Shown: piece by piece, positions 27,658 through 49,935 of the stretch
Layout: every line of letters begins with the position of its first letter
How positions within the stretch are numbered: position 1 is the first letter of the stretch
Origin: a virus
Direction: 5' to 3' (one strand)
Virus record (IMG/VR): IMGVR_UViG_3300050343_000147
Coordinates: 7,495 to 71,494 of that record
Length of the DNA: 64,000 nt
The notes under the pieces: generated by a model
Seen by the model: only the letters and a program-made list of their open reading frames with translations
Databases searched by the model: none
Told to the model about the DNA's origin: nothing
Program-made: the position numbers and the translations under genes

Positions 27658-27658
27658 T

Positions 27659-30649: not shown

Positions 30650-30750
30650 CGTGTTTTGGTTTTAAGGGTTAAACTTTATTTTTGGTTAATATTGCCTCGC
30701 TAGCAATATAGGTTTAGTTATACTATCACTTGTTTTTTACAAAACTTACA

Positions 30751-31109
30751 CTACTCAACTGGTGGTATAGGTGGGTTTTGCCATGTGAAGTATAAATCTT
30801 CATTTACAGGTGTTATTTGTTTAGCTATTTGAGCTTCAATATTAGCTGCCATAGAAGGTACATCTAATGCTCTTCAAGCCAACCAATCACTATGTTTTCA
30901 AAAGCTTCAGTGTCTGCATAAGGTGTAAAAGGTTCTCCAGCTACATAAGTAAAGCTTTGAGCACCTATTTGACTTGCTTGATATTGTTGTCCTCCAGATT
31001 CTTCAGAACCTGAATAAGTCCAATGAACAGTGAAGATTACATTATCTTCACCTTCAGCTTGGATATGAGCGTTCATTTGGTTAATTGTCCATTTGTAAGT
31101 AATTGCCAT
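30751..31109 (-). CDS. Tail-fibre-associated small protein (indel near 30868)
   Basis: MAITYKWTINQM...DNVIFTVHW...FTPYAD...VIGWL, a family commonly found next to S74 fibres. It continues in another frame to TAG at 30751. Confidence 0.55.
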
Positions 31110-31127
31110 TTTTATTGTTTTAATTTA

Positions 31128-32944: not shown

Positions 32945-35900
32945 TACTTATTACAATTACAGTTATTTGACTTTAATTCCTCTATTTCAGCTTTTAGTTC
33001 TTTTATAGCTTCTAGTAATATTGGTGTTATACCTTGATGTCTCATTGATAGCATACCGTTATCATTTTCTCTAACAAGTTCTGGTAAAACTTTCTGAACG
33101 TCTTGAGCTATAAATCCTATATCTTCTTTTATATCAAGTATATCTTCTGATTTATTTTTCCAATCAAATGTTACACCTTGTAGTTTACTTACTTTATCTA
33201 AAGCTGATTCAATTGGTTTAATATTTTCTTTTAATCTAATATCTGATGGTGAACCATAAGCTACAATATCTCCAGAAACTGTAAAAGTACCACTTGAATT
33301 TAATTTACCTGTTTGAGCTGGTGTTGATCCTGTTCTTAAACAAACTGCAAAACCAGATATTGTAGGTCCTTCATTTGCTTGATCATAAAAAGTTGCTGTA
33401 CTAGTTGTAGGATTTGAGTGATTAGCTCTAAACCTATATGAATCAGCAACAACATCTCCAGTAACTGTAAAATCTCCAGTGTAAGCACCTGACATAGTTA
33501 ATGTTCCTGAAGTAGTAATAGTACCACCAGATAAACCATTTCCAGTTGCAACACTTGTAACAGTTCCAGTAGTTGGTGGAGCTGTCCATACCAAATTTAT
33601 AGAACCTGAAGCTTTTGATAAATAATAACCCGAGCCTGGCGCTGCTACTTTTGGCATTCTCCAAAATGTATTACCTATAGTTGAAGTTGCTGTTGGACCA
33701 GTTAATTCTAAATTACCATTACCATAAAGTTTTAATGTTGTGTTATCAACCGGTGTGCCTGATGTATTAAATCTATTTATAAAAGCAAAATAAGCATTAT
33801 CGTTTTCAGATTGTGTAGCTCCAGACCCTGTAGCATAATATATTTCATTTTCTCTAGAACCACCTGAATTATTCCACACCATAGCCATACCAGTATCATA
33901 AGTAGTAGGTGGAGCGGTTGATTGTGCATTTCCACTTACATAAAAATAAGCCCCAGCATTAGTGCCATTAACAGTTAAACTACCAGTAAAATTAGTTGCT
34001 ATAGAAGACGAAGCGCCTCTTGCTGTAACTGATTGTAAAGTATCAGTTTCAGTATATGAAGTTAAATATCTACCATCTAAATTAATAGTAGCTCCAACAG
34101 CAGCATTATTACCAGTTATACTTAAATCACCGTTAGAATCATTAAAAGTTCCACCTGTTACAAAATAGTTTGAACCTGCACTTGGTGTTGCCCAAGATCC
34201 ATCACCTCTTAAAAAAGTTGTAGCACTTCCTCCAGTTGGTACATATCCAACATTAGTGGTTCCAGCATAATACTTTGAAGTTAATGTAAGAACTCTACCG
34301 TTTATACCTTGACCTAAAGGAGCACCAGTAGATGCTGCAACAGCTAAAGTAACACTTGTTATTCCAGTATCAGCTACGGTATAATTAGGTATATTTAAAA
34401 CGCCTGCGTTACTAAGTGTTGAAGCTCCTGAAGTTCCTGTAGTTGTTAATGATTGAAAAGTTTCTGTCGCTTCTGAAACTAAAGTTGAACTTGCACCGGC
34501 TGGTAATAACATTGTATTAGTGACACCTGCACTATGAGGTTGTGATTTTAATATTTGACCATGTGTTCCATCATAACACATTAGTTTAATACCACCATCA
34601 ACAGTGCCCGCACCATCAACTTGTAATAAACCAGCAGAAGGTGAAATTTGATCAATTACAGGTGTAGTTAATGTTTTATTGGTTAACGTTTGAGTACCTG
34701 TTAATGTAACCACAGTACTGTCTATAGAAAATTCATCTGTAGCTGACAAGAGTAAACCTGTTCCATTTGTATACGTTGTGTCGTCTGAATCTATTGTTAT
34801 AGCTGTATTTCCAGTTCTAGTAATTGTTGTTCCACCTGAACCTGTTAAAATAACATCATTATTACTTCCAGTTAAAGGATCTAATCTTAAAGCTGGATTA
34901 GTATTTGAACCTCCTGTTGTTACAGCTAAAAAAGAATAAGTAGTATTATTAATATAACTAGGTACTTGCCATTTATTACCTTCAGTTAAAAATTTAGTTG
35001 TAATTGTAGAGGTTCCAGTAGCAGCGGCACTTAAATCGGCTGTAACTGTTATTGATCCTGTACTAGCTGAATTAGGTGTTAAATTAATATAAGTTCCATC
35101 AGTTGTATCCACACTGTTAACCCCAGAAGCTGTTGCTGGTACCCTAGTCCATGACCCACTACTAGATGATCCACTCCAGATAACCGTATCGCCTATACTC
35201 CAGCTGTTTGGTGTTGTATTAGCTCCATTAGGCGTTGCATTACCGGCAACACTACATATGTAAAAATCACCATTACTATAAGGACTAGGTCCAATTGGCG
35301 GAGGTATTAGGTATGGCATACCACCACTACCACTTGAGGCATCCCATGTTCCTTGAAATTGCGAACCTATACTTGACCAGGTTCCATCCCCTCTTAAATA
35401 AGTAGAGTTTGTTCCACCATCAGGCACATAACCAACTAAACTCCCACCTTTATATTTTTTAGATGATAAAGTTAAAGATCTTAAGTTAGAATTAATAACA
35501 GCTGTTAATGGTGTGTTGTTAACCGTTGCATCCGCTACACCAACAGACTCACTAATTATACCTTGCCCAGGCGGTATACTCCAGGTTTCATCACTAGTTA
35601 AATAATATTTATCTGTGTTTGGCCAAGTTGAAGCAGGTGGTGCTGGAACCAACCCTTTTGTACCTATAACTCCAGTAGGTGGATTACCTGTTCCTACAGC
35701 TGCTTCAAAAACAGTATTTGGTGCGGCTGTACTAGCAATTTCTATTTCACCTGCTCCTACTCTAGTTACTGTTATAAGATCCCCTCCTGAAATTTGTATA
35801 GAATCATCAGTTGTAGAGCTAGCATCAAGTGTTATTAACGGGTCATTATTATCACCTTGAGATGATTGGTCTACGTCTAAAGTATATCTTGGGACATTCG

Positions 35901-38718
35901 GTATGTTTAAAACCCCTGCAGCACTCAGTGTAGCTACGCTCATATAAGGTGAAGTTGGAATAGCAGTTGTTGTTAAGCTTTCAACAACACCGTCACCAGT
36001 TCCAGCACCGATTTGTGTTCTAACCATAGTCGCTGTAACATTACCAGCAAAAGACAAACTTGGAATGGCTGCACCATCAGATATAACGGCTGGTATACCT
36101 GTATCAGGTGAATCATTTGTTATTGTTATTGTGTTATTTGATGCGCTAGATATAGATATATCGGAACCATCTACAAAAGTAATAGTTCCAGCAGCTGCAC
36201 CAGTACTTGTATCGTTCAATGTTATTATCTTTGCAGCACTTGTTAAAGTATATGTATTGTTGTCTCCAGTTGAATCAACTCGCCAAGCTGGATTACCATT
36301 AGTATCTGTTTTCCAAACTAAATTAGCATCAGTAGCGGCGGGAGCGGCTACATAACCAGCCACTGTAACAGCATTAGCAACCCAAGTGTTTGTTGCGTTT
36401 ATAGTTAATAAATCATCTGCTCTTGTAAAAGTAACATTTGAACCTTGTTTAAACACCATCGTATCTTGAGCCGTAGAATCTGCCGATAAAACTAAATTAT
36501 ATTCTCCAGCTGTAACACTTGCTGTACCTGCTAAATCATACAACGTATTATCATTAGCAGCAGCTATAGTTAAAGAATTTGCCGCTCTTGTAAATGTAAT
36601 ATTGGAACCTTTTGTAAACACCATCGTGTCTTGAGCTGTTCCATCGGCTGATAAAACTAAATTATAATTAGCAGCAGTAGTACCATCTGCAGCTCCAGCT
36701 AAAGCATATAGTGTGTCATCATTATCATTAGGTGATGTCAATGTCATTACAAAATTACCATCACTATTAGGATCTGTTAATACAGTTGATAAAGCGCCTG
36801 TTGCTCCAACAAATTGAACTGTTTTACCACTAGCAACATCACCAGTGCTAGGAGTTCCTTGATTATCTTTTATTTCCCAATCATATGATGTATCTGTCCA
36901 AGGCACATTAACAACTAGGTTTTCGCTTTGATCGTCTAGTTGAATCTTATATGTTTGATTAGCTGTTGTTGAAAGACTTTCTGGCACAGCTGAAGCAGTT
37001 GAATCTACATTAACATCAAACTCTAGTGTATTTAACGTTAAACCTATCCCCGCTGTATATGTTGTATTTGTTGCGGCTATATCTATTGTGCTCGCGTCTG
37101 TTCTTGATAATGTAACATTATTTCCACCCGTTAATACAATAGCATCGTCTGTACCATCACTACCTTTTAAATTTATACTTGTTGTGGCTGAAGGTACGTC
37201 GACAGTATAAGTTGTGTTGTTATCTGTTGTATAAGCGGGTACCGCCCAAGTGTTGTTTTTTGTTAAGAATCTTTGTGATGTGCCAGTGTTGTTTCCATCA
37301 GCAGCACTTAGATCAGCTGTAACAGTCACAGCACCAGTTGTAGCTGTATTAGGCGTTAAATCAATAAAAGTACCGTCAGTTGTTGTTAAACTGGTTACAC
37401 CTGAATTTGTAGCAGGTACTCTAGTCCAAGCAGTTCCATCATAAACACACCAATCTCCTAAAGCCCAAGTACTAGGTTCGTTAGTTCCTCCGTTTGGATA
37501 AGCAGTTCCCGCGACATCACATATCCATAAAAACCCTGCACCTTTGTTAGCTGCTAAAGTTAAATCTGGACTTCCACCGCTACCACCTGAAGCATCCCAA
37601 GTTCCTTTAAATATTAAACCTGTAGGTATTGCTTCCCAAGTACCATCACCTTTTAAGTAAGTAGATGATGTTCCACCTTCAGGTACATAACCTACATTAG
37701 CACCACCAATATATTTAGCTGATGTTAGAGTTAACTCTCTGTTAGCTATACTCTCAACTAAAGGTGCACCTGCTGAATCTGCTGTAGCCAAAGTAACACC
37801 AGTTATACCAGTATCTGTACCAGTTAAAGTTATTGTGTTTCCTGTTTGTGCAGCTGTAACACTACCATCGCCTAATATTAAAACAGTTCCACCACTATCG
37901 CTTAACAATACACCAGAATCAGTGTTGTCTGTTCCAGTACCTGCTATTGTTTGTATCGTATCGCTCCAAGGAACTGTAACCAACATTTTTTCACTAGCTA
38001 ATGTAACTGGATAATCTCTAGTTGATGTTTGTGTATAACCTATTTGTACACCACCTCTTATACCATCTGCCGCTAGAGGCAATGTATATATTGTGTCTGT
38101 CCAAGGGACATTTACATAAGCTCTTTCATTATCTAATTCTAATGGATAGTTTTTACCAGCCTCTGTGTAGCCTATTTTTACACCACCTAATGCTACAGTT
38201 GTTGCAACTGGTAAAACATATTGAGTTGGTATTGTTGGAAAAGTAACTAAGTTACCTAAACCATTTATGTATTGAGCAGCTGTCCCCGCGCCTGTAACCG
38301 TTAGTATACCAGCTTGAGTTATAGGTGAGTTAGTGACTGTAAATGCTGCTGGCATTGATAAACCAACGCTAGTTACACCTTGAGCAGCAACATTAACCCA
38401 TTGCGTTCCTGTAGCTGTAGAACTAAGTAATTGCCCTGCTGTTCCTGGTTGGTTACTTGAATCGTAATAACCACCTGAAACTTTTAAACTATTAGAAATA
38501 ATAATAGAATTAGTTGTTGTATTACCTATATTAGTAACCTGTTGTAAATTTTGCGCTGCACCTTGACTAGCGATTAAATCAAGTAAAGATCCTACGGTAA
38601 AACTAACAGTTGGATTACCATGCACTGGGTTTACAGCATCCTCGTCATAAGTTATAGTACCTATAAGTAAATCATCTCTCTTTGGTGTGTTTAAAGGGTA
38701 TGAATATATTATCGCCAT
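32944..38718 (-). CDS. Long tail fibre (1924 aa) with C-terminal Peptidase_S74 intramolecular chaperone
   Basis: Thr/Gly-rich repeats (YLKGDGTW x3, GTWDAS x2) and C-terminal SDIRLKENIKPI...GFIAQDVQKVLPELV...LLEAIKELKAEIEEL. Confidence 0.85.
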   Translation of the reverse strand: MAIIYSYPLNTPKRDDLLIGTITYDEDAVNPVHGNPTVSFTVGSLLDLIASQGAAQNLQQVTNIGNTTTNSIIISNSLKVSGGYYDSSNQPGTAGQLLSSTATGTQWVNVAAQGVTSVGLSMPAAFTVTNSPITQAGILTVTGAGTAAQYINGLGNLVTFPTIPTQYVLPVATTVALGGVKIGYTEAGKNYPLELDNERAYVNVPWTDTIYTLPLAADGIRGGVQIGYTQTSTRDYPVTLASEKMLVTVPWSDTIQTIAGTGTDNTDSGVLLSDSGGTVLILGDGSVTAAQTGNTITLTGTDTGITGVTLATADSAGAPLVESIANRELTLTSAKYIGGANVGYVPEGGTSSTYLKGDGTWEAIPTGLIFKGTWDASGGSGGSPDLTLAANKGAGFLWICDVAGTAYPNGGTNEPSTWALGDWCVYDGTAWTRVPATNSGVTSLTTTDGTFIDLTPNTATTGAVTVTADLSAADGNNTGTSQRFLTKNNTWAVPAYTTDNNTTYTVDVPSATTSINLKGSDGTDDAIVLTGGNNVTLSRTDASTIDIAATNTTYTAGIGLTLNTLEFDVNVDSTASAVPESLSTTANQTYKIQLDDQSENLVVNVPWTDTSYDWEIKDNQGTPSTGDVASGKTVQFVGATGALSTVLTDPNSDGNFVMTLTSPNDNDDTLYALAGAADGTTAANYNLVLSADGTAQDTMVFTKGSNITFTRAANSLTIAAANDNTLYDLAGTASVTAGEYNLVLSADSTAQDTMVFKQGSNVTFTRADDLLTINATNTWVANAVTVAGYVAAPAATDANLVWKTDTNGNPAWRVDSTGDNNTYTLTSAAKIITLNDTSTGAAAGTITFVDGSDISISSASNNTITITNDSPDTGIPAVISDGAAIPSLSFAGNVTATMVRTQIGAGTGDGVVESLTTTAIPTSPYMSVATLSAAGVLNIPNVPRYTLDVDQSSQGDNNDPLITLDASSTTDDSIQISGGDLITVTRVGAGEIEIASTAAPNTVFEAAVGTGNPPTGVIGTKGLVPAPPASTWPNTDKYYLTSDETWSIPPGQGIISESVGVADATVNNTPLTAVINSNLRSLTLSSKKYKGGSLVGYVPDGGTNSTYLRGDGTWSSIGSQFQGTWDASSGSGGMPYLIPPPIGPSPYSNGDFYICSVAGNATPNGANTTPNSWSIGDTVIWSGSSSSGSWTRVPATASGVNSVDTTDGTYINLTPNSASTGSITVTADLSAAATGTSTITTKFLTEGNKWQVPSYINNTTYSFLAVTTGGSNTNPALRLDPLTGSNNDVILTGSGGTTITRTGNTAITIDSDDTTYTNGTGLLLSATDEFSIDSTVVTLTGTQTLTNKTLTTPVIDQISPSAGLLQVDGAGTVDGGIKLMCYDGTHGQILKSQPHSAGVTNTMLLPAGASSTLVSEATETFQSLTTTGTSGASTLSNAGVLNIPNYTVADTGITSVTLAVAASTGAPLGQGINGRVLTLTSKYYAGTTNVGYVPTGGSATTFLRGDGSWATPSAGSNYFVTGGTFNDSNGDLSITGNNAAVGATINLDGRYLTSYTETDTLQSVTARGASSSIATNFTGSLTVNGTNAGAYFYVSGNAQSTAPPTTYDTGMAMVWNNSGGSRENEIYYATGSGATQSENDNAYFAFINRFNTSGTPVDNTTLKLYGNGNLELTGPTATSTIGNTFWRMPKVAAPGSGYYLSKASGSINLVWTAPPTTGTVTSVATGNGLSGGTITTSGTLTMSGAYTGDFTVTGDVVADSYRFRANHSNPTTSTATFYDQANEGPTISGFAVCLRTGSTPAQTGKLNSSGTFTVSGDIVAYGSPSDIRLKENIKPIESALDKVSKLQGVTFDWKNKSEDILDIKEDIGFIAQDVQKVLPELVRENDNGMLSMRHQGITPILLEAIKELKAEIEELKSNNCNCNK

Positions 38719-38721
38719 TTA

Positions 38722-41088
38722 TTATTTATTTTTTAATATTTCTATTTCAGCTTTTAGTTCTTGTATTGCTTTAACTAATAAAGTAACTATTTTAGAGTAA
38801 TCAACACCTTGCATTTCTTCTGCATCTTTTTCTCCCACAACTGCATCTGGTAATACTTCTTGTAATTCATGAGCCATAACTCCATAACTTCTGCTTTCAT
38901 TTGTTTTCCATTTAAAGTCATAAACAGGTATTTTAGAAACCATATCTAAACCTGCAAAGTCTTGTAAATCTTCTTTTAACCTATAATCAGAAGATGTGCT
39001 ATAGGTAGTTGAAGAAGTTGTAAGATTTATTGAACCAACTGCTGTACTTCCATTTGCAAACCTTACAGCTTGATTACTTCCTGAAGCAGTTTTTATGCCT
39101 AAATTTTGACTAGTAGCGTCAATAACTAATTTATGTCCACCAACACCACCAACAGTAGTACTTTCAGTTCCTATTCCGACGTTTCCTTTAATATAGGTTT
39201 TACCATCTGCTTGTATCGTAAAAACGTCGCCGCTTGCAGCATATCCTCCCGAATATAAATCTGTGACTACAAACTTACCTTGCGATCCAGTATATGTAAC
39301 ACCAATTCTTCCCACTGTATTAGTTGCTGTTATACTGTCAGTAAAGTTAATAGCTGCCAAACCCCCTATGTTTCCACTCCATCCACCGTTAAAAGATAAT
39401 TGTAAAAAATCAAAATCTGTTCCCCCGGATAACATGCTTTTAATAACCTTAACATTTCCATCATTAACAGTTAGTTTAGCTGTAGGATTAGTCGTCCCAA
39501 TCCCGACTTTTCCGGGAATACTAACATAAGTAGCCGCCCTGTCTCCAAACATAACTAATGATCCAGCGGCATTGTTATTGTGGCCCCACATTCCCCATTG
39601 ACCATTGCCAATTTGTGTTAATCCAGTCCAAGTATTTCCGCTTGATCCAACAATAGAAGTGCCACCTCCTCTATAACCTAATGACATGCCATATTTATCC
39701 ATAGCAGCTGTGCTTGAATTATGCTCTGTGAAAAATATTCTACTTGAACCTTCGCCACTACTATCAGTATTTCCTTCAATAGATATAAATCTACCAGATG
39801 TGTTTGTGCCATTTCCTGGTAAACCAAAAGTTTGGTTACCCATTATAGTTAGCTTAGCTGATGCAGCAGGTGAAGCCGTTCCGATCCCGACGTTTTCTGA
39901 ACTATCTAATGTTATTCCTCTGTTAGTTATTCCTGAACCACCACCATTTTGTATTTGTAATTTATTTGTTGCATTATCTAAAATAATCTGTGCATAGTTA
40001 TCATCATCTGCATCTCCTAATGCAAGAAACGATAAACCATTAGTAGTGTTAGATTTTATGTTTATTGCAGTTGATGTAGTACCATCTATAGTAAGTTTTC
40101 TTGAGGGCGAAACCGTTCCAATTCCTAATCCAGTTGAGTTCCATCTACCTAAGGTTCCACCACTTCGTTTAAAATCAATATAATTCGTACAGTCTAGTGT
40201 TAAAGGATAGCCTGTGTCAATATGAAAACCGGTTGATGCACGGGTGTCATAATCAATCCCTATTTTATTATAAACTGTATCATCACTATTAAACGTCCAG
40301 TTTATAAATCCACTTGTGCCAGTTGCTCCAGATTTTATCCACATACTAGCGTTTGACGCATCAAGTTGTAAATCACCAACAACTTCTAATTTTTTATATG
40401 GCGAAGCCGTTCCGATTCCTACGTTTCCTGAACTATTTACAACTAAAGCATTGCTATTAAAGTTTGTTACTGCAACTTTAAATACATCTGCGGAATCATC
40501 ATAACCTACTCTAAATGTTCTTGATGGATTTTTAAAATCTATAAATGAATCTGCTTCTGAAGTATTCTCTAATTGAATTGCTGCAACAGAATCACTTTCA
40601 ACGTGTAAAATTCTTTCAGGCGAAGTCGTCCCGATACCTAAATTACAATCATTGAAATAACTAGTACCAGATCTTACATCTAAAACAGCAGTACCTGTAT
40701 TGGCACCATAAGAACCATATGCAAATCTAGCTATTGCTGCATCACCAAAAACCCCCAAAGAGTTTTGACAATACAAAGGGTAAGATCCATTACTATTATT
40801 TCTAGTTAATAAATTATAACTAGAATTTGTTGATCCTGTTCTAAAACCACCACTACTATAAATTATACCTGAAAAAGTTGCACTAGTTCCAGATAAAGGT
40901 CCAGTTAATGTTCCACCTGTTAAAGGTAAATATGGTCCACCAATAACAGTTGAAGCTGCTACCCAAGTTGGGGCTGCATTACCATTTGATCTTAATATCT
41001 GCCCAGAAGTTCCATGAGTATTACTAAAAAGTATAGCCCCAGTGGAATGGACGTCAAATAATCCGTTTATATTAGATAATGATGCCAT
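38722..41088 (-). CDS. Tail fibre (788 aa) with GNVGIGT repeats and an S74 chaperone
   Basis: Six xGIGT junctions and SDYRLKEDL...GVMAHELQEVLPDAV...VDYSK. Confidence 0.85.
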   Translation of the reverse strand: MASLSNINGLFDVHSTGAILFSNTHGTSGQILRSNGNAAPTWVAASTVIGGPYLPLTGGTLTGPLSGTSATFSGIIYSSGGFRTGSTNSSYNLLTRNNSNGSYPLYCQNSLGVFGDAAIARFAYGSYGANTGTAVLDVRSGTSYFNDCNLGIGTTSPERILHVESDSVAAIQLENTSEADSFIDFKNPSRTFRVGYDDSADVFKVAVTNFNSNALVVNSSGNVGIGTASPYKKLEVVGDLQLDASNASMWIKSGATGTSGFINWTFNSDDTVYNKIGIDYDTRASTGFHIDTGYPLTLDCTNYIDFKRSGGTLGRWNSTGLGIGTVSPSRKLTIDGTTSTAINIKSNTTNGLSFLALGDADDDNYAQIILDNATNKLQIQNGGGSGITNRGITLDSSENVGIGTASPAASAKLTIMGNQTFGLPGNGTNTSGRFISIEGNTDSSGEGSSRIFFTEHNSSTAAMDKYGMSLGYRGGGTSIVGSSGNTWTGLTQIGNGQWGMWGHNNNAAGSLVMFGDRAATYVSIPGKVGIGTTNPTAKLTVNDGNVKVIKSMLSGGTDFDFLQLSFNGGWSGNIGGLAAINFTDSITATNTVGRIGVTYTGSQGKFVVTDLYSGGYAASGDVFTIQADGKTYIKGNVGIGTESTTVGGVGGHKLVIDATSQNLGIKTASGSNQAVRFANGSTAVGSINLTTSSTTYSTSSDYRLKEDLQDFAGLDMVSKIPVYDFKWKTNESRSYGVMAHELQEVLPDAVVGEKDAEEMQGVDYSKIVTLLVKAIQELKAEIEILKNK

Positions 41089-44000
41089 TAATTATTTTCT
41101 AATGTTTCTATTCTAGCTTTTAAGCTATCGTTATCTGCTTTTAATTCTTGTATTGATTGAATCAAATGAGGCACAAGTTTTGAGTAATCAACAGACTGAT
41201 ATTCTTCTTCACCTTTTTTATTTATTTCATCTTTTTCACCAGCTACAACTTCAGGTATTAACTCTTGTAATTCGTGAGCTAACACACCGTAATTAACATT
41301 ATACCCTTCTATATCTTTCCACTTATAATTATAAACATTTATTTTACAAATAGTATCTAAAGCTTTAAAAGGTTTTAAATCTTCTTTTAATCTATAATCA
41401 GAAGTTGTAAGATATTGAACTGAATTAGAATTGTATCCTTTTTGAATAGTTCCACATAAAGTAGTGTTATGATAAAATCTAATAAACTTAGTGGTTATTT
41501 GTGAGCTACTTGATGTAGAAACCATACCTATAAAAGGATTACTGTTTCCAGAACTGTCTCCATTTATTGCTACACCCGGATTATTTAAACCAGAGTTTAA
41601 TGGTATTGTTACTAATGCTTGGTCTAAGTTTCCAGCAGTTACACTACTATTATAATAATTAGGTTGTAATACAATTCTTGGTATAAAAGATTGATTGGAT
41701 TGTTCTGTGATTCCTATGAACTTGTCGGTTCCTTTATATAAAACTAAACTTGGGTTACTATCTGCAAATTGATTATTATCACGGTTTAAATATTTAAATT
41801 CAAAATTAGCACTATTATATGAATTAGTATTTGAAGCAAAAGTTAAAGTTGCATAATCTTGATTTGGAAAAACTGAAGGAGCCGTAAATATTGTTATACC
41901 TGCGTCAGCAGTTCCAGACCCAGAGTTAACACCTGATCCAACCACTAATGTATTACGATTTGAAGGGTGAGAAGATGGTGTTGTATTTTGTATTCCAACA
42001 TTTCCAGCGTAATCAACTCTAAATCTTTCTGCTAAACCAGTAGGCGTTCCAGGGCCAACACCTGTAGCATTATTTGTATATACAACAAAAGCACCTGAAC
42101 CTTCTTTTTCTTGCGTATTTGCATCCCCATTTTGCCCAACCTCTGCACCTATTCTAACCTGTGGATATTCATTGGCATTGTCATCTTGAAACACAAAATC
42201 TATAAATGTTTTTTGTTGATTTAAATCTGAACCTACATAATTCCATAACCTTTGTAACGTAGTTCCTGTGGCAGAGCTGGTTGTTCCTGTAGATTTATAA
42301 AGATCTAATAAGTAATCAGGACTAGTTGTTCCGATACCAACGTTACCAGAATTGTTATTATAAATATCATTACCAGTTGTTGTCCAAGGTGATGATCCAC
42401 CTGCAGCTTGCCAACTTGGAGCAGCATTTCCATTTGATGTCAACACTTCTCCTGCAGCTCCGTAATTAGCACCACCAATACCTATAGCACCATTTGATGA
42501 TATACGCATTTTTTCAGAAGTATTTGTACCACTTGCACCCGTATTTGTAATGAAAACTAAATCACTTTTATAATTAGAACCACTGTTTGTTCTATCTGCG
42601 TAAATAGCTGCATTTACTGAATTTGCATCATTAAAAGAAATACCGTGTGCCCTATCGCTTCCACTCCCGGTTGACCAAGTTCTTCTTAATTTTAATACAT
42701 CTATATCATTAAAAGTGTCATCAGAAACATTAACTTCAAGTTTTGAACCAGGCGTAGCCGTCCCGATTCCTACGTTGCCGCCGTTTGGATTTAATACTAA
42801 AAGTGAAGTAGTCTCCATTGCGCCAGCACCACTAACTTGAATCCAAGCCCCATACGGGCTTGCATTATAAATGCCCATATCCATAACTTGGCTATTACCT
42901 GTTGTAGTAGCAAGCCTAAAACCAACATTAGTAGTGGATGTACCAGAAGTAGCTGGAGCACCTGGAGTATTGTGTACCGTAAGTTTTCCTTTATTATAAC
43001 TATTTGAAGTCGTCCCGATCACGACGTCACCAGAACTATCTATACGCATTCTTTCTGTAATTGTTGAACCTGTTAAAAATGTTATATAACCAGTTCCACC
43101 TGTGATAAGCGTTGCATTGCCCCCTTGTCCTGTGTATTCATTTCCGTATAACTGTAATTGGGCTCCCCTTGAAGGACTTGCTTCTCCACCACCTGCTAAA
43201 ATCATTCTTTGATTATCAGCAGCATCAGAAGTATTAGTTCCTATAAAGTTATAAGTTGACCTATTTAATAAGATTTTCCCAGAACTGTCTATAACCATTC
43301 TTTGACTACCATTTGTCTGAAATCTCATTTCATTGTCAGTGTGATTATATGTAATCATTCCACCATCTGTATTTCCAGCAGTTGAACTTTTTGTATCTGT
43401 AAACACTAATCTACCATTTCCAGTGCTTGTAGACTTTATTGTTATTCCACCATTACCAGATGTATCTATGACTATATTATTTGCTTGTCCCCAATAGCCT
43501 GAAGGGTCTGTTTCGCTGATGCCGACATTACCTGAAGTGTCTATTGTTAATCTAGCAGAAGCAGCATCACTATCCCAAAAAACCAATGAACCATTTCCAC
43601 TTGAATACATTACATATTTTTTACCACTAGCAGCTGTAGTATCTAAAGTTATTGAAGCAACATTCGAATTTGTTATAGATATTCCGCTTTCAGTACCTGA
43701 TATATTATTAATAGGCGCTAAATCACCTATTTTAAGAAAATCTCCATCCGTGAATAGGAATTTATTATTTATATTTGATAAATTTGCCATTATTTGCTTT
43801 TAAGTAATTCTATTTCAGCTTTTAGTTCTTGTATTGCTGCAACTAATAGTGGTACTAATTTTGATTGGTCAATTCCTTGATATTCTGGATTACCTTTTTC
43901 ATCTACACCGTCTTTAATTCCTGTGATTGCTTCCGGAACTATCTCTTGCACTTCGTGGGCTAAGAATCCATCTACTGTTTTATCTGCATCTGCTATAAAG

Positions 44001-46076
44001 TTAAATCGACTTGGTTTTAATTGACTTACTCTGTCTAAAGCTCCAGTTATTTCTACTACATTTTCTTTTAATCTATAATCAGAAGATGTGTTAAATTGTG
44101 TATTAGAACCATCTGTTACAACTGAACCTACAACACCATTTGGATTAGTAAAATACATAGATACTGTTCCAGTTGTAGTTGCTGAACCAATCTTCACTAA
44201 ACCTTGATTAAGACTAATATTATTTGCACCATCACTATAAGATGCACCTGAAATTACAACTTCACCATCTGTGTATGATAGTCTACCCGCTGTTCTTTGC
44301 CACATATAATCAGACCCAAATATTTCAGGAGCCGTGTTAGCTTGATTTGAATTTGTTGTTTCAACTCTATACAAAACACCATACGAACTTGGATGATCAT
44401 TGTAAATACGAGCCTCGGTTCCACTTACGGTAAGTTCAGGATGATTACTTGTTGTTCCTCTTCTAGAAACTTCTCTAACCACCCAAGCTGTATTATTACT
44501 ATTAGCATATACTATATAGACAGAACTATTATATGTTCCAGTTCCAGTGGTTGTTAAAAAAAACTTATACTGATGTTTAGATGTTAAAGTAGTTCCTTGA
44601 AGTTGATTTAATGTTGCGACAAGATAATTACTAGGTCCTATACCTGCGGGTACAGTTCCTCCACTTGAATAAAATGTTTTATACCCTAATCCAACTCCGT
44701 AATTACCAGGTATTGTAAGTTTTTCACTAGGCGAATCCGTCCCAATCCCGACGTTTCCGTTTAAATTTACTCTTAAATGCTCTGTTGTTACATTACCTGT
44801 TATTCCTCCACCAATACCAACTGTAAAAACTGAGTTTGTTGCATAATAACCAGATGGTGTTCCATTCCCATCTGTAGTTACTAATAATATTGGTTTAGTT
44901 GGAACATATGAAGTACCTCCATCAGTACCAGAATTAGTACACAAAGTACTTTCCATTACCGTTAGTTTACTAGGAGGTCCTTGCGTTCCGATCCCGACGT
45001 TGCCGCTTCCTTTGATAGCCATTCTGATTTGAGGTGAAACAGCTGTTTTTGTTCTAAAATATATACTTCCATTATCATTATTAAATCTATTATCAATATA
45101 AGTATCACCATAATAATGATCACCTGTAATGTCAGTACCAGTAGCTGTTGTATCAGAATTCCTTAAAAATAAACCAGTGCTTGCAAAATCTGGCGCTGCT
45201 ATTTCTAATGCTTTACTACCAGCTCTAGTCCATCCGATAGGAAGATTACCTCCAATTGGTTCTGTTGCTGAAGGTGAATCCGTCCCGATCCCGACGTTGC
45301 CGCCATCATCAATAGTGACACGAGTACTAGAATGTCTATAGTCTCGTATACCAAAATGTCCTTCTCCGCCTTCACGTAAAGTAAAGCCCCATCTATTGAG
45401 AGATGGATTTAAGTTTGAAGGAGCAACAAAAGCTATAGGACTAGATGATACTACTTGTATAGCACCATCTGAAATATCATTGATATTATCTGAAGTCGCA
45501 ACTTCAAGTTTAGATTGAGGATCATTTGTTCCAATCCCGACGTTTCCGTCTGAAGCAATACGCATTTTTTCTGACTTAACATCACCATGTTCTGTTACAA
45601 AAGCCATATCAACAGATGCTGGACCTGAATCTAAAAATACAATACGAGCAATCCCTTGTCCTGATGTTCTACTGTCATACATTAATTGACCAAAAGTATT
45701 TATAGTAGCTGTTTGATTAGTAATATGAATTGTTGCTGTACCCGATCTTTGTCCTAAATCATCTGCAGGATTATAAATAACACTATTATTTTTTTCTACA
45801 TCTAACAAAGCTTGAGGTCCATTCGTACCGATCCCGACGTTGCCGTTATTAAAGTAAGAAGTTCCATTACCTCTAACAGAAAACAGTTCAGTTCCATCTT
45901 CCTTTCTTATAAGCAATGGTGCGTGACCTGAAGTACGACCTGCGGTAACTACAACACCACTGCTATCACCAGTATTTTCAAACCAACCTGCCCACCCTGC
46001 TGTAGAACGTATGCTTCTAATTCCATCACCAGAAACATCTAGTTTAAAACTTGGCGAATCCGTTCCAATTCCTACG
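39166..46076. repeat. Dispersed GC-rich 16-bp quasi-palindromic repeat (consensus on + strand CGTYCCRATYCCKACG) encoding NVGIGT junctions
   Basis: Copies at 39166, 39493, 39877, 40114, 40408, 40627, 42759, 43011, 44738, 44984, 45281, 45527, 45824 and 46061. Confidence 0.85.
41088..43790 (-). CDS. Tail fibre (900 aa) with GNVGIGT repeats and an S74 chaperone
   Basis: GNVGIG repeats and SDYRLKEDL...GVLAHELQELIPEVV...VDYSKLVP. Confidence 0.85.
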   Translation of the reverse strand: MANLSNINNKFLFTDGDFLKIGDLAPINNISGTESGISITNSNVASITLDTTAASGKKYVMYSSGNGSLVFWDSDAASARLTIDTSGNVGISETDPSGYWGQANNIVIDTSGNGGITIKSTSTGNGRLVFTDTKSSTAGNTDGGMITYNHTDNEMRFQTNGSQRMVIDSSGKILLNRSTYNFIGTNTSDAADNQRMILAGGGEASPSRGAQLQLYGNEYTGQGGNATLITGGTGYITFLTGSTITERMRIDSSGDVVIGTTSNSYNKGKLTVHNTPGAPATSGTSTTNVGFRLATTTGNSQVMDMGIYNASPYGAWIQVSGAGAMETTSLLVLNPNGGNVGIGTATPGSKLEVNVSDDTFNDIDVLKLRRTWSTGSGSDRAHGISFNDANSVNAAIYADRTNSGSNYKSDLVFITNTGASGTNTSEKMRISSNGAIGIGGANYGAAGEVLTSNGNAAPSWQAAGGSSPWTTTGNDIYNNNSGNVGIGTTSPDYLLDLYKSTGTTSSATGTTLQRLWNYVGSDLNQQKTFIDFVFQDDNANEYPQVRIGAEVGQNGDANTQEKEGSGAFVVYTNNATGVGPGTPTGLAERFRVDYAGNVGIQNTTPSSHPSNRNTLVVGSGVNSGSGTADAGITIFTAPSVFPNQDYATLTFASNTNSYNSANFEFKYLNRDNNQFADSNPSLVLYKGTDKFIGITEQSNQSFIPRIVLQPNYYNSSVTAGNLDQALVTIPLNSGLNNPGVAINGDSSGNSNPFIGMVSTSSSSQITTKFIRFYHNTTLCGTIQKGYNSNSVQYLTTSDYRLKEDLKPFKALDTICKINVYNYKWKDIEGYNVNYGVLAHELQELIPEVVAGEKDEINKKGEEEYQSVDYSKLVPHLIQSIQELKADNDSLKARIETLENN

Positions 46077-46354
46077 TTTCCTCCATCTTTAACTGTCAAA
46101 CCAACACCACTGTCATCAAATAAATTTATATTTTTATTATTTGAAGCCTGTATTGTAAATTGATTACCACCACCACCAACGTCTCCGTATTTAATATTAT
46201 CTCTATAAACTTGATAAGAAGTAAAACTTGCGCCATTATCAATTCTAATTGAACCACCTACTTCCAGTTTTTCATTTGGACCTGTGCTATTAATACCCAC
46301 ATTACCTCCAGTTGTTACTAGGAACTTATTATTTATATTAGATAAATTAGCCAT
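43790..46354 (-). CDS. Tail fibre (854 aa) with GNVGIGT repeats and an S74 chaperone
   Basis: Seven GNVGI repeats and SDYRLKENV...GFLAHEVQEIVPEAI...IDQSKLVP. Confidence 0.85.
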   Translation of the reverse strand: MANLSNINNKFLVTTGGNVGINSTGPNEKLEVGGSIRIDNGASFTSYQVYRDNIKYGDVGGGGNQFTIQASNNKNINLFDDSGVGLTVKDGGNVGIGTDSPSFKLDVSGDGIRSIRSTAGWAGWFENTGDSSGVVVTAGRTSGHAPLLIRKEDGTELFSVRGNGTSYFNNGNVGIGTNGPQALLDVEKNNSVIYNPADDLGQRSGTATIHITNQTATINTFGQLMYDSRTSGQGIARIVFLDSGPASVDMAFVTEHGDVKSEKMRIASDGNVGIGTNDPQSKLEVATSDNINDISDGAIQVVSSSPIAFVAPSNLNPSLNRWGFTLREGGEGHFGIRDYRHSSTRVTIDDGGNVGIGTDSPSATEPIGGNLPIGWTRAGSKALEIAAPDFASTGLFLRNSDTTATGTDITGDHYYGDTYIDNRFNNDNGSIYFRTKTAVSPQIRMAIKGSGNVGIGTQGPPSKLTVMESTLCTNSGTDGGTSYVPTKPILLVTTDGNGTPSGYYATNSVFTVGIGGGITGNVTTEHLRVNLNGNVGIGTDSPSEKLTIPGNYGVGLGYKTFYSSGGTVPAGIGPSNYLVATLNQLQGTTLTSKHQYKFFLTTTGTGTYNSSVYIVYANSNNTAWVVREVSRRGTTSNHPELTVSGTEARIYNDHPSSYGVLYRVETTNSNQANTAPEIFGSDYMWQRTAGRLSYTDGEVVISGASYSDGANNISLNQGLVKIGSATTTGTVSMYFTNPNGVVGSVVTDGSNTQFNTSSDYRLKENVVEITGALDRVSQLKPSRFNFIADADKTVDGFLAHEVQEIVPEAITGIKDGVDEKGNPEYQGIDQSKLVPLLVAAIQELKAEIELLKSK

Positions 46355-46362
46355 ATATTATT

Positions 46363-49300
46363 TTATGATGTGTATCTAGTTACAGCAGTTGCTCCTTGAC
46401 CTACTTGAATTGTGTAGTGTATATCTTGAGTTGTAGTTGCGGCAATTTCACACTTAACAGTATCACCACCTACACCTTGACCATCGTCAGTAAAAGTAAC
46501 TACATAGTCACCATTTGTAGCGGCGCCACTATCTATTATTTTGTTATAATTTGGAGCTGTATTCAACCTGTGTGCTACAGTGTATTTTTTACAAGAATAT
46601 CCAGAAGTTGCAGATGTTAAGTAAACATCAAAAATTAAAGCTCCAGTTGTTGTTCTTGTTAATCTAAATAATGTTGCAGCTGCAGCTCCACCAGTAAAAC
46701 TTTTACTTCCGTTAAATATACCAGATTTTCCACCACCATGTATTATATCACCATCAACAGTTAAGTTACCGTCGATTTCTACATCACCTGAAAAAGTTGC
46801 ATTTTGTGATGAATCTAATGTAAGTGCTAATGTATCTGCTTGACCTGCACCTCCACCAGTTCTAAAATGTAAATTTCCACTTCCTGCAGTTGCACCATAT
46901 GCTCTTATTCTTAAACTATCTCCTGACCTATCTAATACACCTGCACTTGTTTTTGAAGTTGTTAAAGCACCCTTCCAAACTATTGCTCCATTTACTTCAA
47001 GTTTTTCGGTTAAAGAAGTTTCATTAATTCCTACATTACCAGAATTGTCTATTGTTAATCTTTTTGAACCACCTGTATAAAACTCTAAATTTTGACCATA
47101 AGGAGCAGTCGAAGCATCTTCCCCAGAATTTTTAATATAAGGAGCAGCACCTGCTGAATTTTGAAATCTTAATTGAGCACCAACTGTTTGTAGTTGAACA
47201 TTTCCTGAACTATCTATTGTTAATTTTGTATTAGCGTTTGTCTTAAAAGTCATTTCTTTACCGACATTATCATATAAAATACCACCATTATCAAAGTCTG
47301 CTTGATTACCAAAATCTAATATAGAAGTGCCTTCACTTGTGAATGAAGCCCTTGTATTTCCTGAAGCAGTTGATAATTTTAATACACTTCCTGTTGCCCC
47401 TTTCGGTGTACCACTACCTGCAATTAATACAGGTGCTGTTACATTTCCTGAAACAGTAAGTTCTGTACCTCCTGCATTTTGAGAAACCATTGAATCACCA
47501 AGACTAGTTGTTGTGCTCCAAACTGGTAAAGTATATTGTGTACCTGTACCTGGTTGAGCAGATCCTGTTATAGTTATTGTTCCAGCACTTTCAGCCACTG
47601 TTATACCACTAGCACCTGTAAATGTTGCTGTATCAGTTGTACTTATGTTAGTTGTATTCGTTCCATCAGATAAAGTCCAGTATTGGTAATTATCTAAAGT
47701 TGGAAATGCAACTAAATTTAATTCACCGTTTATATAATCTGTAGAAGCTCCAGCGCCTGCAATGTTAATATCACCACTACTTGTTATTGGTGAGTTTGTT
47801 ATAGTAAGTGCGTCACCAGTTTCTGTTAAACCTACACTTGTAACTGTACCTGTTGTTGGTGTTGTCCATGTGTTAACTGAAGCAGAACCTCCACCTGATG
47901 TTAGTACTTGTCCAGCTGTACCGTAAGTTGCAGCACCTAAACTAATCCCTTCGTTTATTCTTAATGTTTCTTCAAAAACAGCAGGACCTTTTACAGTTGT
48001 ACTGTCTGTATCAGCATCACCAAGCGTTGTATTACCTTCAACTACAAAGTTACCAGAGTTACCAACAGTAACCGTAGTACCATCATCTGCTATAAGACCA
48101 GTTGCTAAAGTATTAGATCCAGTCCATTTAGCTATTTTATTTGCAGTACCACTTCCAAGTATAGCAGAAGTGTTATCTATTTTTTGCCAAGTATCAGTTG
48201 CCCCGACTTCTACGAATATAGCCCAATCACCAACTTGCCAATCAGTTATACCATCTAAGTTTGTAGCACCTGCAACACTTACAATATAAAATTCACCAGT
48301 TACACCTGTGCCACTAGCAAGTGTTGGCGTATTAGTGCTAGCGTTCCACGTTCCTTTGTATACAAGACCTTGTGGTATACCTGTTATTTGACCTTGTAAT
48401 TTTGCCATTGCAGCAAGTATCGTGTCAGATGCAGCGATTGCAGCAGAAGTTGGAGTTGGTAAGTTTGTAAGAACTTTACCGGTTACAGTGGTATCGGCTA
48501 TTGTAGTTGGTATTGTAACAGCGCCACCTGATGTATAAGTGTGAGGACCACCTGTTGATACGGCATCACCTGAAATTGCAATAGCTCCAGACGATGCTAA
48601 AGCTGTTGCTGTACTTGCATTACCAGTTAAAGCACCTACAAAATCTGTAGATGTAATACTTGTGTAACCTGTGTATGCACCAGCTGACCCAGTAAATGTA
48701 CCGTCAGTTAATACGCCACCAACCTCTAGTTCACCAGCTATAGCTACTTTACCAGTTGCACCGCCTGCAAAAGTAAATCCTGCAGCACCTGTTAGTGTAT
48801 CAGTGTCTGACCAGTATGTAACTTGATTAGCTGCACCAGATCCGTCTGGCACACCTGTTGTAGCTATTGTTAAATCAAAGTTAGCTGCATCCCAAGTTGT
48901 AGTTATATTAGTACCATCAGTTACCGTGACAGCAGTGCCACTAGGTATAGCTGTACCTTCTAAGCTCCAATTGTATAATGGAACTTCTGTAACCCAGTTA
49001 GTACCAGAACCTGTAGACGATAGTATTTGACCTGCAGTACCTATATCACCGCTTGAATCAGAGTATGATCCTGTATTTATTAAACTAGCAAACGTACCTG
49101 ATGTTGTAGCTTCAAAAGCTCCAGTTACTTTAGCACCACCTACTAGTGTTTCTATTTTTTTAGAGCCTTCAAAGTTTAAATCAACCCCGGCTTTACCGTT
49201 TAAAATTAATTTTTTAGCAGTTGCTGTAGCTGATATATCTATATCACCTGAACTGTTGGATATTGTAGTTTTACCTTCAGTATTTACAATTTTTAAATCA

Positions 49301-49935
49301 GTACCATCATGTTCTATTATAGCATCTGATCCAGTACCAAGAATAACTTTTGATGTATCCGTGAAAGTAATGTCATCACCTGCTGAAACCACTATATCAG
49401 ATCCACTAGTTGTATTACCATTAGCTAATACTTCTTGTAACGTGTCGTATAACCCAACTTTAGTGTCAACATAAGTTTTTATTGCTAATGTACTTACTAC
49501 ATTGTCATTTGCTGCTCCTGTTAAATTAGAATTGTTTATTAAGTTAGTACCAGATATTGGGCCATCAATAACTAAAGCAGTTAAACTACCTAAACTTGTA
49601 ATATTAGGTTGAACTGGAGTAGCTATTGTACCTGTGAACGCCGTTGAGTTAACATTTGTAAAACCTGTTGCTGTAGTACCAGTGATACTAACACCTCCTG
49701 TTGTTACAAAGTTTCCACCTCTAAAAGCATTGTTAGTTAAGTTTATATCTCTACCAGTTGCTACATTACCAAGATCTAATACTGTTTGTAAATCTCCAGT
49801 TGCTATAGTTACAAGATCTATTACACTTTGTATAGTAAAATTCTTAGTGGCTTTATTGCTACTGCTTACATCTGTACCTAATATAAGGTCGGTTCTTTCT
49901 GGATTAACCGTGGGATATGAATATATTATTGCCAT
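46363..49935 (-). CDS. Tail fibre (1190 aa), no S74 domain
   Basis: Shares the MAIIYSYP N-terminus and the GTAGQxLSS, LQxVxxxGN and YKGTWNAS modules with the 1924-aa fibre. Confidence 0.75.
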   Translation of the reverse strand: MAIIYSYPTVNPERTDLILGTDVSSSNKATKNFTIQSVIDLVTIATGDLQTVLDLGNVATGRDINLTNNAFRGGNFVTTGGVSITGTTATGFTNVNSTAFTGTIATPVQPNITSLGSLTALVIDGPISGTNLINNSNLTGAANDNVVSTLAIKTYVDTKVGLYDTLQEVLANGNTTSGSDIVVSAGDDITFTDTSKVILGTGSDAIIEHDGTDLKIVNTEGKTTISNSSGDIDISATATAKKLILNGKAGVDLNFEGSKKIETLVGGAKVTGAFEATTSGTFASLINTGSYSDSSGDIGTAGQILSSTGSGTNWVTEVPLYNWSLEGTAIPSGTAVTVTDGTNITTTWDAANFDLTIATTGVPDGSGAANQVTYWSDTDTLTGAAGFTFAGGATGKVAIAGELEVGGVLTDGTFTGSAGAYTGYTSITSTDFVGALTGNASTATALASSGAIAISGDAVSTGGPHTYTSGGAVTIPTTIADTTVTGKVLTNLPTPTSAAIAASDTILAAMAKLQGQITGIPQGLVYKGTWNASTNTPTLASGTGVTGEFYIVSVAGATNLDGITDWQVGDWAIFVEVGATDTWQKIDNTSAILGSGTANKIAKWTGSNTLATGLIADDGTTVTVGNSGNFVVEGNTTLGDADTDSTTVKGPAVFEETLRINEGISLGAATYGTAGQVLTSGGGSASVNTWTTPTTGTVTSVGLTETGDALTITNSPITSSGDINIAGAGASTDYINGELNLVAFPTLDNYQYWTLSDGTNTTNISTTDTATFTGASGITVAESAGTITITGSAQPGTGTQYTLPVWSTTTSLGDSMVSQNAGGTELTVSGNVTAPVLIAGSGTPKGATGSVLKLSTASGNTRASFTSEGTSILDFGNQADFDNGGILYDNVGKEMTFKTNANTKLTIDSSGNVQLQTVGAQLRFQNSAGAAPYIKNSGEDASTAPYGQNLEFYTGGSKRLTIDNSGNVGINETSLTEKLEVNGAIVWKGALTTSKTSAGVLDRSGDSLRIRAYGATAGSGNLHFRTGGGAGQADTLALTLDSSQNATFSGDVEIDGNLTVDGDIIHGGGKSGIFNGSKSFTGGAAAATLFRLTRTTTGALIFDVYLTSATSGYSCKKYTVAHRLNTAPNYNKIIDSGAATNGDYVVTFTDDGQGVGGDTVKCEIAATTTQDIHYTIQVGQGATAVTRYTS

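Follow-up and report, generated by a model that had tools for sequence, protein, structure and literature searches.

A codon-biased DNA box at the predicted capping loops of S74-type phage fibre genes as a probable site of module exchange

A short DNA box recurring in three fibre genes is examined here in a 64,000-nucleotide (nt) stretch of DNA from an uncultured marine phage (hereafter the window), namely positions 7495-71494, and hence the final 64,000 bases, of the 71.5 kb IMG/VR record IMGVR_UViG_3300050343_000147, which is rated complete by CheckV. Five fibre-like genes are arranged head to tail on the minus strand of the window: g1924 (32944-38718), g788 (38722-41088), g900 (41088-43790), g854 (43790-46354) and g1190 (46363-49935). 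In the three central genes, whose products have 788, 900 and 854 amino acids (aa), respectively, modules of about 70-130 aa are separated by a peptide of the GNVGIGT type, and the DNA encoding this peptide, referred to below as the box, departs markedly from the rest of the genes in its choice of synonymous codons. This box is probably a site at which modules are exchanged between fibre genes. All three genes carry a C-terminal S74 intramolecular-chaperone domain (Peptidase_S74, PF13884; E values of 9e-13 for g788, 7e-12 for g900 and 3e-10 for g854). The same family can be found in g1924 (2e-20), while a search of g1190 gave no match. The S74 catalytic motif, which is of the SDxxxK type, reads S/T-SDYRLKE in g788, g900 and g854, and g900 additionally shows a weak match to End_tail_spike.

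All junctions of these fibre genes were listed with their codons, and 15 of them are of the xIGT type, with six in g788, three in g900 and six in g854, all on the minus strand. The canonical boxes of g854 are found at aa94 (46061-46078, AAC GTA GGA ATT GGA ACG), aa173 (45824-45841, AAC GTC GGG ATC GGT ACG), aa272 (45527-45544, AAC GTC GGG ATT GGA ACA), aa354 (45281-45298, AAC GTC GGG ATC GGG ACG), aa453 (44984-45001, AAC GTC GGG ATC GGA ACG) and aa535 (44738-44755, AAC GTC GGG ATT GGG ACG), those at aa354 and aa453 being the left and right edges of module 5 (m5). Those of g900 are located at aa256, where the peptide is GDVVIGT (43011-43028, GAC GTC GTG ATC GGG ACG), at aa340 (42759-42776, AAC GTA GGA ATC GGG ACG) and at aa484 (42327-42344, AAC GTT GGT ATC GGA ACA). 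Regarding g788, boxes lie at aa150 (CNLGIGT; 40627-40644, AAT TTA GGT ATC GGG ACG), aa223 (40408-40425, AAC GTA GGA ATC GGA ACG), aa321 (TGLGIGT; 40114-40131, GGA TTA GGA ATT GGA ACG), aa400 (39877-39894, AAC GTC GGG ATC GGA ACG), aa528 (GKVGIGT; 39493-39510, AAA GTC GGG ATT GGG ACG) and aa637 (39166-39183, AAC GTC GGA ATA GGA ACT). Three variant boxes accompany them, namely GNVGINS at aa19 of g854 (46286-46303) and GNVGIQN at aa598 of g900 (41985-42002), both with AT-rich codons, and GNVGISE at aa89 of g900 (43512-43529). The flanking genes g1924 and g1190 are devoid of canonical boxes, and g1190 has a single AT-rich GNVGINE variant at about 47020-47037. An earlier interpretation made from the letters of the DNA alone (hereafter the sequence-only reading) had already pointed to the AT-rich junctions GIQN (~42000), GINS (~46290) and GINE (~47030), which are as it described them.

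Successive box starts are separated by 219-384 nt in g788 and by 237-297 nt in g854, every copy being in frame and in direct orientation, so that the spacing of 219-384 nt and the direct repeats given in the sequence-only reading hold for these two genes. Within the genome, likeness between box copies extends over only ~40-58 nt, and an all-against-all blastp comparison of the modules gave short and weak matches (29-50% identity over at most 73 aa) apart from the S74 ends; the modules lying between the boxes are indeed unrelated, as had been claimed. Since the copies are alike over so short a stretch and the modules are otherwise unlike, recent duplication is excluded.

The codon signature of the box can be read directly from the codon listing. 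Thr is encoded by ACG in 12 of the 15 xIGT junctions, as the sequence-only reading had counted, against 42 of 757 Thr codons (5.5%) outside the junctions of the five fibre genes, which serve as background for all the counts that follow. Val is GTC in nine of the 13 Val-bearing junctions (16/357, or 4.5%, outside), and the ten cases counted earlier correspond to these nine plus one at the GNVGISE junction. Likewise, Ile is ATC in 9/15 junctions (15/335, 4.5%, outside) and Asn is AAC in 11/12 (102/422, 24%, outside), while GGG accounts for 40 of 664 Gly codons (6%) outside the junctions. The test of codon bias against the rest of the genes gave significant binomial P values of 3e-13 for ACG, 4e-10 for GTC, 3e-9 for ATC and 2e-6 for AAC, with a whole range of 3e-13 to 1e-4; these values assume independent sites, and the pattern search behind the counts captured 14 of the 15 junctions. 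Overall, 14 boxes with 98 codons have a GC content at third codon positions (GC3) of 0.60, compared with 0.139 for the remaining 5558 codons. As a control, the S74 motif S/T-SDYRLKE, whose conservation equals or exceeds that of the box, uses AT-ending codons, with a GC3 of 0-0.125 in all three genes.

At the protein level, the box can be assigned a structural role by alignment. In a phmmer search, g854 matched the Bdellovibrio fibre Bd2133 (8OND, E 2e-4) as well as 8OML, with the boxes in register, and Bd2133 reads VGINTAAPLQKL and VGIGATAPTAKL in its alignment with g854. The box peptide follows the pattern V-G-I-G/N-T-x-x-P-x-x-K-L, and so does Bd2133 where aligned. According to the accessible part of the study of these proteins, they are trimeric beta-helix fibres, some with an S74 domain and some lacking one, and a capping-loop motif, V-G-G/N-pi-x-x-P-x-x-x-L, is located on the edges of the helices (Caulton et al., 2024; PMC10769870); as printed there, this consensus is one residue shorter than Bd2133 and the boxes. 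Judged by this alignment, the peptide (G)NVGIGT-x-x-P-x-x-KL is the predicted capping loop of S74-type trimeric beta-helix fibres. Each module would correspond to one beta-helix segment with the box as its opening loop, the trimeric fold being predicted through the match to 8OND. As the peptide would open each segment, a module of ~70-130 aa, from loop to loop, would be a self-contained structural unit. No paper mentioning the peptides GNVGIGT or NVGIGT was found in the literature search.

The fate of the modules in related phages was followed with g854 as query, which retrieved 35 loci from metagenome contigs and five from the viral collection; L144, which is the same phage, and L151, L168 and L174, which duplicate viral loci, were left out. 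Searched singly, the modules recur at 80-100% aa identity in differing orders, genes and neighbourhoods. At the nt level, blastn high-scoring segment pairs (HSPs) of 87-99% identity span from box to box, and single modules can be found within otherwise unrelated fibre genes. When HSP ends at contig ends are excluded, 30 of the 63 HSP ends in the three genes lie no more than 5 nt from the 18-nt box core, versus 6.8% expected. Among the remaining 33 ends, five are 6-25 nt from a box core, and the other 28 mostly correspond to gene starts or stops, to the end of the shared N-terminal domain or to the start of the S74 domain. In ungapped alignments, identity drops from ~100% to ~30% within the box. 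Together with the modules of 87-99% identity in unrelated contexts, these breaks in the box support the conserved in-frame crossover points proposed in the sequence-only reading. Module mosaicism and breakpoints in the box are both directly observed in these contigs; by comparison of the sequences, the exchange boundaries of the natural chimeras fall in the box.

Individual loci illustrate the variety of these arrangements. L145 is 99% identical to the window with the module at aa96-174 replaced, the breakpoints being in the boxes at aa94 and aa173 of g854. L147 retains modules 3 and 4 (97.7% nt identity) between foreign modules, with breakpoints at aa173, aa354 and aa535. In L140, a g900 module (96.3%) is joined straight to a g854 module (96.5%), with an HSP overlap of 26 nt at the box; this joint brings the g900 box at aa256 together with module m2 of g854, whose boxes at aa94 and aa173 are both breakpoints in this locus. 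Besides these two modules, a comparison of L140 with the 64 kb window yields one 361-nt stretch of 67.6% identity at the end of g1924. Module 5 is found in several loci: it sits in the next gene downstream in L157, it occurs in at least six further contexts, and in the 10.7 kb L139 it is, as a 317-nt module of 95% identity, the sole likeness of at least 150 nt to the whole window. Its left box (aa354) is a breakpoint in L139, L147, L149, L150, L153, L154, L156 and L157, and its right box (aa453) in L139, L153, L154, L156 and L157. L146 is a syntenic relative in which the flanking genes are 87-93% identical and the fibre cluster is a patchwork; it has breakpoints in the g854 boxes at aa173, aa272 and aa535, and it shares with g788 a module of 90.7% identity delimited by the boxes at aa400 (left) and aa528 (right). 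The same three g854 boxes are breakpoints in L148, and HSP ends can be found at the GNVGISE variant of g900 in L149, L150 and L157. An open frame spans the shared segment in the relative for 13 of the 15 cases checked (262-1814 aa, counted between stops or up to where the contig ends). In L145, the open frame stops at 1603 while the window gene and the alignment run on, which may reflect either a nonsense or frameshift variant or an error in the contig.

The codon signature is shared by the relatives. In a pool of 159 boxes from 31 loci, the window included, the GC3 values at the seven box codons are 0.61, 0.89, 0.47, 0.45, 0.54, 0.33 and 0.68, those of the flanking codons being 0.04-0.29. The same amino acid is encoded differently inside and just outside the box: Thr+6 is ACG in 106/159 boxes, Thr+7 is ACG in 5/96 and ACT in 83/96; Asn+1 is AAC in 142/159 and Asn+18 in 5/35; Val+2 is GTC in 72/159 and Val+15 in 4/93. 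The neighbouring Pro+9, which is 96% conserved, is CCT in 124/153. When boxes with either flank at least 70% identical are merged, the 103 collapsed contexts keep the bias (ACG 68, AAC 89, GGC 62, GTC 42 and ATC 47). The consensus of the gene pool is GGC AAC GTC GGG ATC GGR ACG, followed by ACT AGT CCT, and the box measures 21-30 nt.

Actually, the box is not confined to this phage. When viral contigs were scanned for stretches able to encode GNVGIGT with whatever codons, at least 138 were found, which form a sample and not a census. Among the viral-contig matches listed (211 in-frame boxes), the GC3 of the box exceeds that of its flanks in every GC bin, GGC is preferred for the Gly preceding the box, together with AAC and GTC, and Thr favours ACG over ACC by 28 to 5, 36 to 4 and 24 to 3 across the GC bins. 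GGC and GTC are also enriched in a sample of bacterial and archaeal genomes. Among cultured phages, the Synechococcus phage S-CRES2 encodes a 1318-aa S74 fibre, gp114 (L331, 3655-7608), with 12 boxes spaced by 213-261 nt. An identical 22-nt core, GGCAACGTTGGTATCGGTACGA, is present in five of its boxes, and two further boxes are 1-2 nt off this core (ATA for ATC; GTC and CGT). With GTAATCCT or GTAGTCCT as its extension, the core makes a near-identical box of 30 nt, while no repeat longer than 68 nt was found around the boxes of gp114. Because this string mixes C- and T-ending codons for one amino acid, Asn being AAC early and AAT later, it resembles a fixed DNA string more than a product of codon optimisation. 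The search for the motif in other genes of the GNVGIGT type, as suggested by the sequence-only reading, therefore has a divided outcome, the codon signature being general and the GATC centre (see below) not. Seven near-identical boxes are counted in the Synechococcus phages S-CRES1 and S-CRES2; no paper mentioning S-CRES1 was found in the literature search.

The reading preferred here is that the DNA box encoding the capping loop is probably a short-homology crossover site for the in-frame exchange of modules, and that such exchange keeps the box uniform. The loop-coding DNA would act as a conserved box of 21-30 nt common to many unrelated modules, genes and phages. Two box-bearing genes would meet by co-infection or inside one genome, and short-homology recombination would cross over within the box, with the outcome that modules are swapped, replaced or moved among fibre genes. 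Modules bracketed by the common box would spread, and their exchange would hold its synonymous sites uniform. Since the box lies in the same frame and would hold the same structural position everywhere, each crossover would give an in-frame, foldable chimera, and a uniform box within a genome of ~14% GC3 would appear as a GC-rich codon island. The crossover may plausibly be catalyzed by the phage itself: an Erf-like single-strand annealing protein (59053-59559, plus strand; phrog_155, E 7e-32) and an exonuclease, presumably its partner (59561-60289, plus strand; phrog_412, E 1e-34), are encoded in the window. The ERF/exonuclease pair named in the sequence-only reading is thus present, and its role as catalyst is a plausible one. 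The codon signature itself would be caused either by exchange or by selection on the DNA string. With regard to the latter, which the sequence-only reading had asserted, constraint on the DNA string is supported as the most economical reading by the sharply bounded codon profile and the S-CRES2 string, without amounting to proof.

Several points weigh against this proposal. The evidence for exchange consists of mosaics in contigs, no recombination event having been directly observed, and the role proposed for the Erf-like protein and the exonuclease is deduced from the presence of their genes. The HSP ends are non-independent, as the loci have common ancestry, and the crossover can be placed no finer than the box, because an HSP over a shared module always extends into the conserved box. 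As g854 served as bait, g788 and g900 are thinly sampled. Joints in Logan contigs are mostly box-to-box, but one of their sides measures just 21-30 nt, and repeats give rise to joints of this kind. Regarding the codons, the C-ending GGC, AAC, GTC and ATC would also fit a box-specific translational selection. ACG is weakly enriched in the sample of cellular genomes (7/55 versus a background of 10% in the lowest GC bin), and in variant boxes (GNVGIxx) the bias towards AAC and GGC is weaker (p 0.002-0.003), GTC being no different. Finally, in three boxes of the pelagiphage Bylgja, Thr is ACT and not ACG, ATC being used in two.

A rather unlikely alternative, albeit the strongest, is that the crossovers are real and the codon signature a neutral by-product of repeated exchange or gene conversion, possibly with GC-biased repair, the ability to recombine being unselected. 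Third positions are more alike within loci than between them (0.61 versus 0.34 in the broad set, 0.53 versus 0.46 among relatives), and the near-identical repeated box of S-CRES2, T-ending codons included, is what concerted evolution gives; however, the same GGC, AAC, ATC and ACG are met in unrelated lineages of varied GC content, a pattern that within-genome conversion alone does not predict. It could also be hypothesized that codon choice serves translation, through a rare-codon pause for co-translational folding or through accuracy-optimal C-ending codons, with recombination as an incidental matter. The box codons for Val, Ile, Gly and Thr are indeed the rarest or near-rarest in the window, the box coincides with a structural boundary, and GGC, AAC, GTC and ATC all end in C. 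Nevertheless, the box is at least as GC-rich as its flanks even in GC-richer contexts, where its codons are consequently not rare, and the preference of Thr for ACG over ACC among the viral matches listed does not follow the C-ending rule. Moreover, AT-ending codons are retained at the neighbouring conserved residues Pro+9 (96% conserved) and Leu+13 as well as in the S74 catalytic motif, and the fixed string of S-CRES2 has AAC for its first Asn and AAT for a later one. Translational explanations thus account for the codon anomaly less well than a constraint at the DNA level, and this alternative appears unlikely. As a description of the anomaly, CpG content was likewise considered and dropped as insufficient: AAC|G, GTC|G, ATC|G and ACG are biased, yet neither the GGC of the first Gly, which precedes AAC, nor the GGG or GGA of the second creates a CpG.

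The sequence-only reading had seen in the box a palindromic site, the 16-nt dyad CGTC-NN-GATC-NN-GACG, and a recombinase or nuclease target site was one of the roles it put forward. The dyad itself is real: CGTCNNGATCNNGACG has eight matches with at most two mismatches, all within fibre genes, versus 0.13 expected from shuffles, and in the fullest box all six synonymous choices complete it. It is exact at 45281-45296 and 43011-43026, i.e., in the boxes at aa354 of g854 and aa256 of g900, and has one mismatch at 39877, 44738, 44984 and 45824, in agreement with the two complete and four near-complete sites located earlier. Among the relatives, on the other hand, its partner positions do not covary, complementarity being equal to marginal expectation (90 versus 89.9, 40 versus 39.9 and 45 versus 47.2 expected), and GGT predominates at the first Gly among the matches listed in the broad samples, which destroys the GATC centre. 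No match to Phage_integrase (PF00589) or Resolvase (PF00239) was obtained in the 71.5 kb record, with profiles that detected 14 and 12, respectively, of 14 reference genomes used as positive controls, and, of the 80 open reading frames (ORFs) called, the 37 that were scanned contained no endonuclease and, apart from Erf, no recombinase; the absence of a site-specific recombinase noted earlier for the window thereby extends to the whole record. Inverted sites of the kind used in inversion switching are absent, all boxes being direct repeats on the minus strand, and boxes occur in cellular genomes as well as in numerous unrelated phages. Given the lack of covariation, the restricted GATC centre and the lack of a recombinase match, the dyad is read as a by-product of the consensus codons, and a dedicated target site is very improbable. 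A role of GATC in restriction-methylation was rejected as well, GATC being over-represented in the window and not avoided (181 sites versus 120 +/- 10 in dinucleotide-preserving shuffles). Even less credit can be given to the possibility that the boxes are alike as recent tandem duplicates, without exchange. Direct repeats and regular spacing are what it would lead one to expect, but it is refuted by the ~40-58 nt of likeness around the boxes, by the weak blastp matches between modules (29-50% over at most 73 aa, S74 ends apart) and by the occurrence of modules 87-99% identical to those of the window in otherwise unrelated contigs.

Going beyond the preferred reading of a crossover site, a broader possibility can be put forward tentatively, namely that the box may be a community-wide, codon-locked adaptor that selection, working through the spread of modules, keeps uniform. 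It would provide a universal in-frame splice point for beta-helix fibre modules across marine phage lineages and hosts, and in AT-rich phages the GC-rich island might form a unique and stable annealing address for Erf-type proteins. If this were true, the box would correspond, in nature, to the standardised overhangs used in assembly, and receptor-binding fibres would evolve combinatorially from a common module library.

The principle of motif-borne exchange in receptor-binding genes is already known, and the closest cases are the motifs of gp38 and those of E. coli tailspikes. Glycine-rich motifs of T-even gp38 and conserved boxes of gp37 were reportedly put forward as crossover sites by Tetart and colleagues in 1998. 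As far as the accessible part of a later study goes, crossovers occur within small conserved glycine-rich motifs of gp38; these short motifs part variable receptor-recognition segments, and crossing over in them without extended homology generates chimeric adhesins (Trojet et al., 2011; PMC3157838). In contrast to gp38, whole beta-helix modules of 70-130 aa are concerned here, in S74-type fibres unrelated to gp38 with up to 6-12 modules per gene, a marked synonymous-codon signature is present in an AT-rich genome, and exchange is known from environmental DNA and not from crosses. For E. coli tailspike phages, Pas et al. (2023; PMC10408124) suggested that conserved DNA motifs on either side of the receptor-binding domains may act as recombination hotspots, and short hotspots of high identity have been described in receptor-binding proteins (RBPs) of Klebsiella phages (bioRxiv 10.64898/2026.05.12.724579). 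In the available portions of both sources, as here, short over-conserved sequences lie at the borders of exchangeable receptor-binding parts and are interpreted as substrates of cross-taxon exchange. Unlike the box, which is found at every internal module boundary, the tailspike motifs described there lie at the boundary between the N-terminal anchor and the receptor-binding domain, with one or two per gene; the box furthermore coincides with a defined structural loop, and it was analysed at the codon level, with breakpoints mapped to ~20 nt.

Regarding the enzymes, the accessible text of De Paepe et al. (2014; PMC3945230) reports that the Erf/Exo pathway performs 20-fold better than the RecA pathway on identical sequences and 100-fold better on sequences 78% identical, and that Rad52-like recombinases dominate exchange on short, diverged homologies. 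An Erf and exonuclease pair, and inserts of high identity between short conserved stretches, are common to the present case and to the Rad52-like annealases (Redbeta, Erf, RecT) treated in that text, which deals with temperate coliphages and prophages and with tens to hundreds of bp between genes, whereas here a reiterated intragenic box of 21-30 nt is known from sequence. The fibres of Caulton et al. (2024; 8OND, 8OML) share with those of the window the peptide motif and the C-terminal S74 domain with SDxxxK; in the part of that paper accessible, the motif is treated as protein structure only, 'recombin' occurs twice, in the methods, 'shuffl' does not occur, and neither a signature in the DNA nor module exchange at this loop is described. 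The accessible part of Smug et al. (2023; PMC10684548) makes no mention of breakpoint or linker. As far as the literature searches reach, supplements aside, what is new is that the box recurs at each internal module boundary of S74 fibres and coincides with the predicted capping loop, along with its sharply bounded synonymous signature and the mapping of module exchange to it in marine viral DNA. While the frequent shuffling of RBP domains without loss of frame or fold is usually explained in general terms, the proposed crossover point, a short DNA box coinciding with a structural loop and bearing a measurable signature at synonymous sites, offers a concrete and testable answer. Such boxes could mark the limits of modules in metagenomic fibre genes, help to track the flow of modules between marine phage lineages, and supply natural junctions where chimeric fibres could be engineered in laboratory phage-host pairs; the S-CRES2 fibre is a possible experimental system.

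Several further observations were made on the fibre cluster. Logan contigs of the runs X10, X12, X19 and X8 were compared at 85% likeness, rare variants being invisible in contigs, and their many joints and loose ends at boxes, possibly split alignments of other box-bearing genes, were not used as evidence. In X19 and X8, which come from two studies, a joint omits exactly g900 (41090-43789), linking the g788 start codon to the g854 stop; one side of this joint measures 28 nt and 7 nt are ambiguous, and it may represent a variant lacking this fibre gene or a gene junction of a relative. The fibre cluster of L146 contains no high-identity segment of g900, its one likeness to this gene being of 66.6% at the S74 end. 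With regard to N-termini, MAIIYSYP is common to g1924 and g1190, the two largest fibre genes, and MA(N/S)LSNIN to the box-rich g788, g900 and g854, which suggests two classes of fibre attachment per virion.

Adjoining the intact 17 kb of fibre genes, genes on the minus strand at 18000-32000 are found in pieces, the stop-to-stop ORFs switching frames. The large terminase is represented by a 212-aa piece covering profile positions 231-427 of 758, the portal by a 102-aa piece and a GroEL-like chaperonin by a 107-aa piece. An ORF of ~521 aa that is intact in L167 and L156 has its counterpart placed by tblastn over frames -3, -1, -2, -3 and -1 of the window. Reading TAG as Gln or TGA as Trp leaves the ORFs broken; the fragmentation reflects either many indel errors of assembly or real decay.

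The host is probably a member of the marine Flavobacteriia, as a structural protein of the window shares 43-50% identity with proteins from phages of Flavobacterium, Cellulophaga and Maribacter; Flavobacteriia phages of the elemo, Cellulophaga and Maribacter groups are related to it in the backbone. In contrast to these capsid-side genes, the S74 domain of g854 (43790-44160) has 72-76% nt identity to fibre genes of Pelagibacter phages (HTVC168P, EXVC010P group) and 68-72% to those of Synechococcus and Prochlorococcus phages, and by this similarity the fibre ends seem to be common to phages of widely differing hosts. Against cultured phages, megablast of g788, g900 and g854 gave no match, and blastn matched only the S74 domain (68-76%) and three short stretches (49-99 nt, 74-86%). 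A scan of 38000-47500 against Rfam matched no family. The fibre stretch was found, whole or in part, in 20 of the 22 listed seawater or viral metagenome runs; these 20 come from 16 studies, and three of the runs are possibly the source sample.

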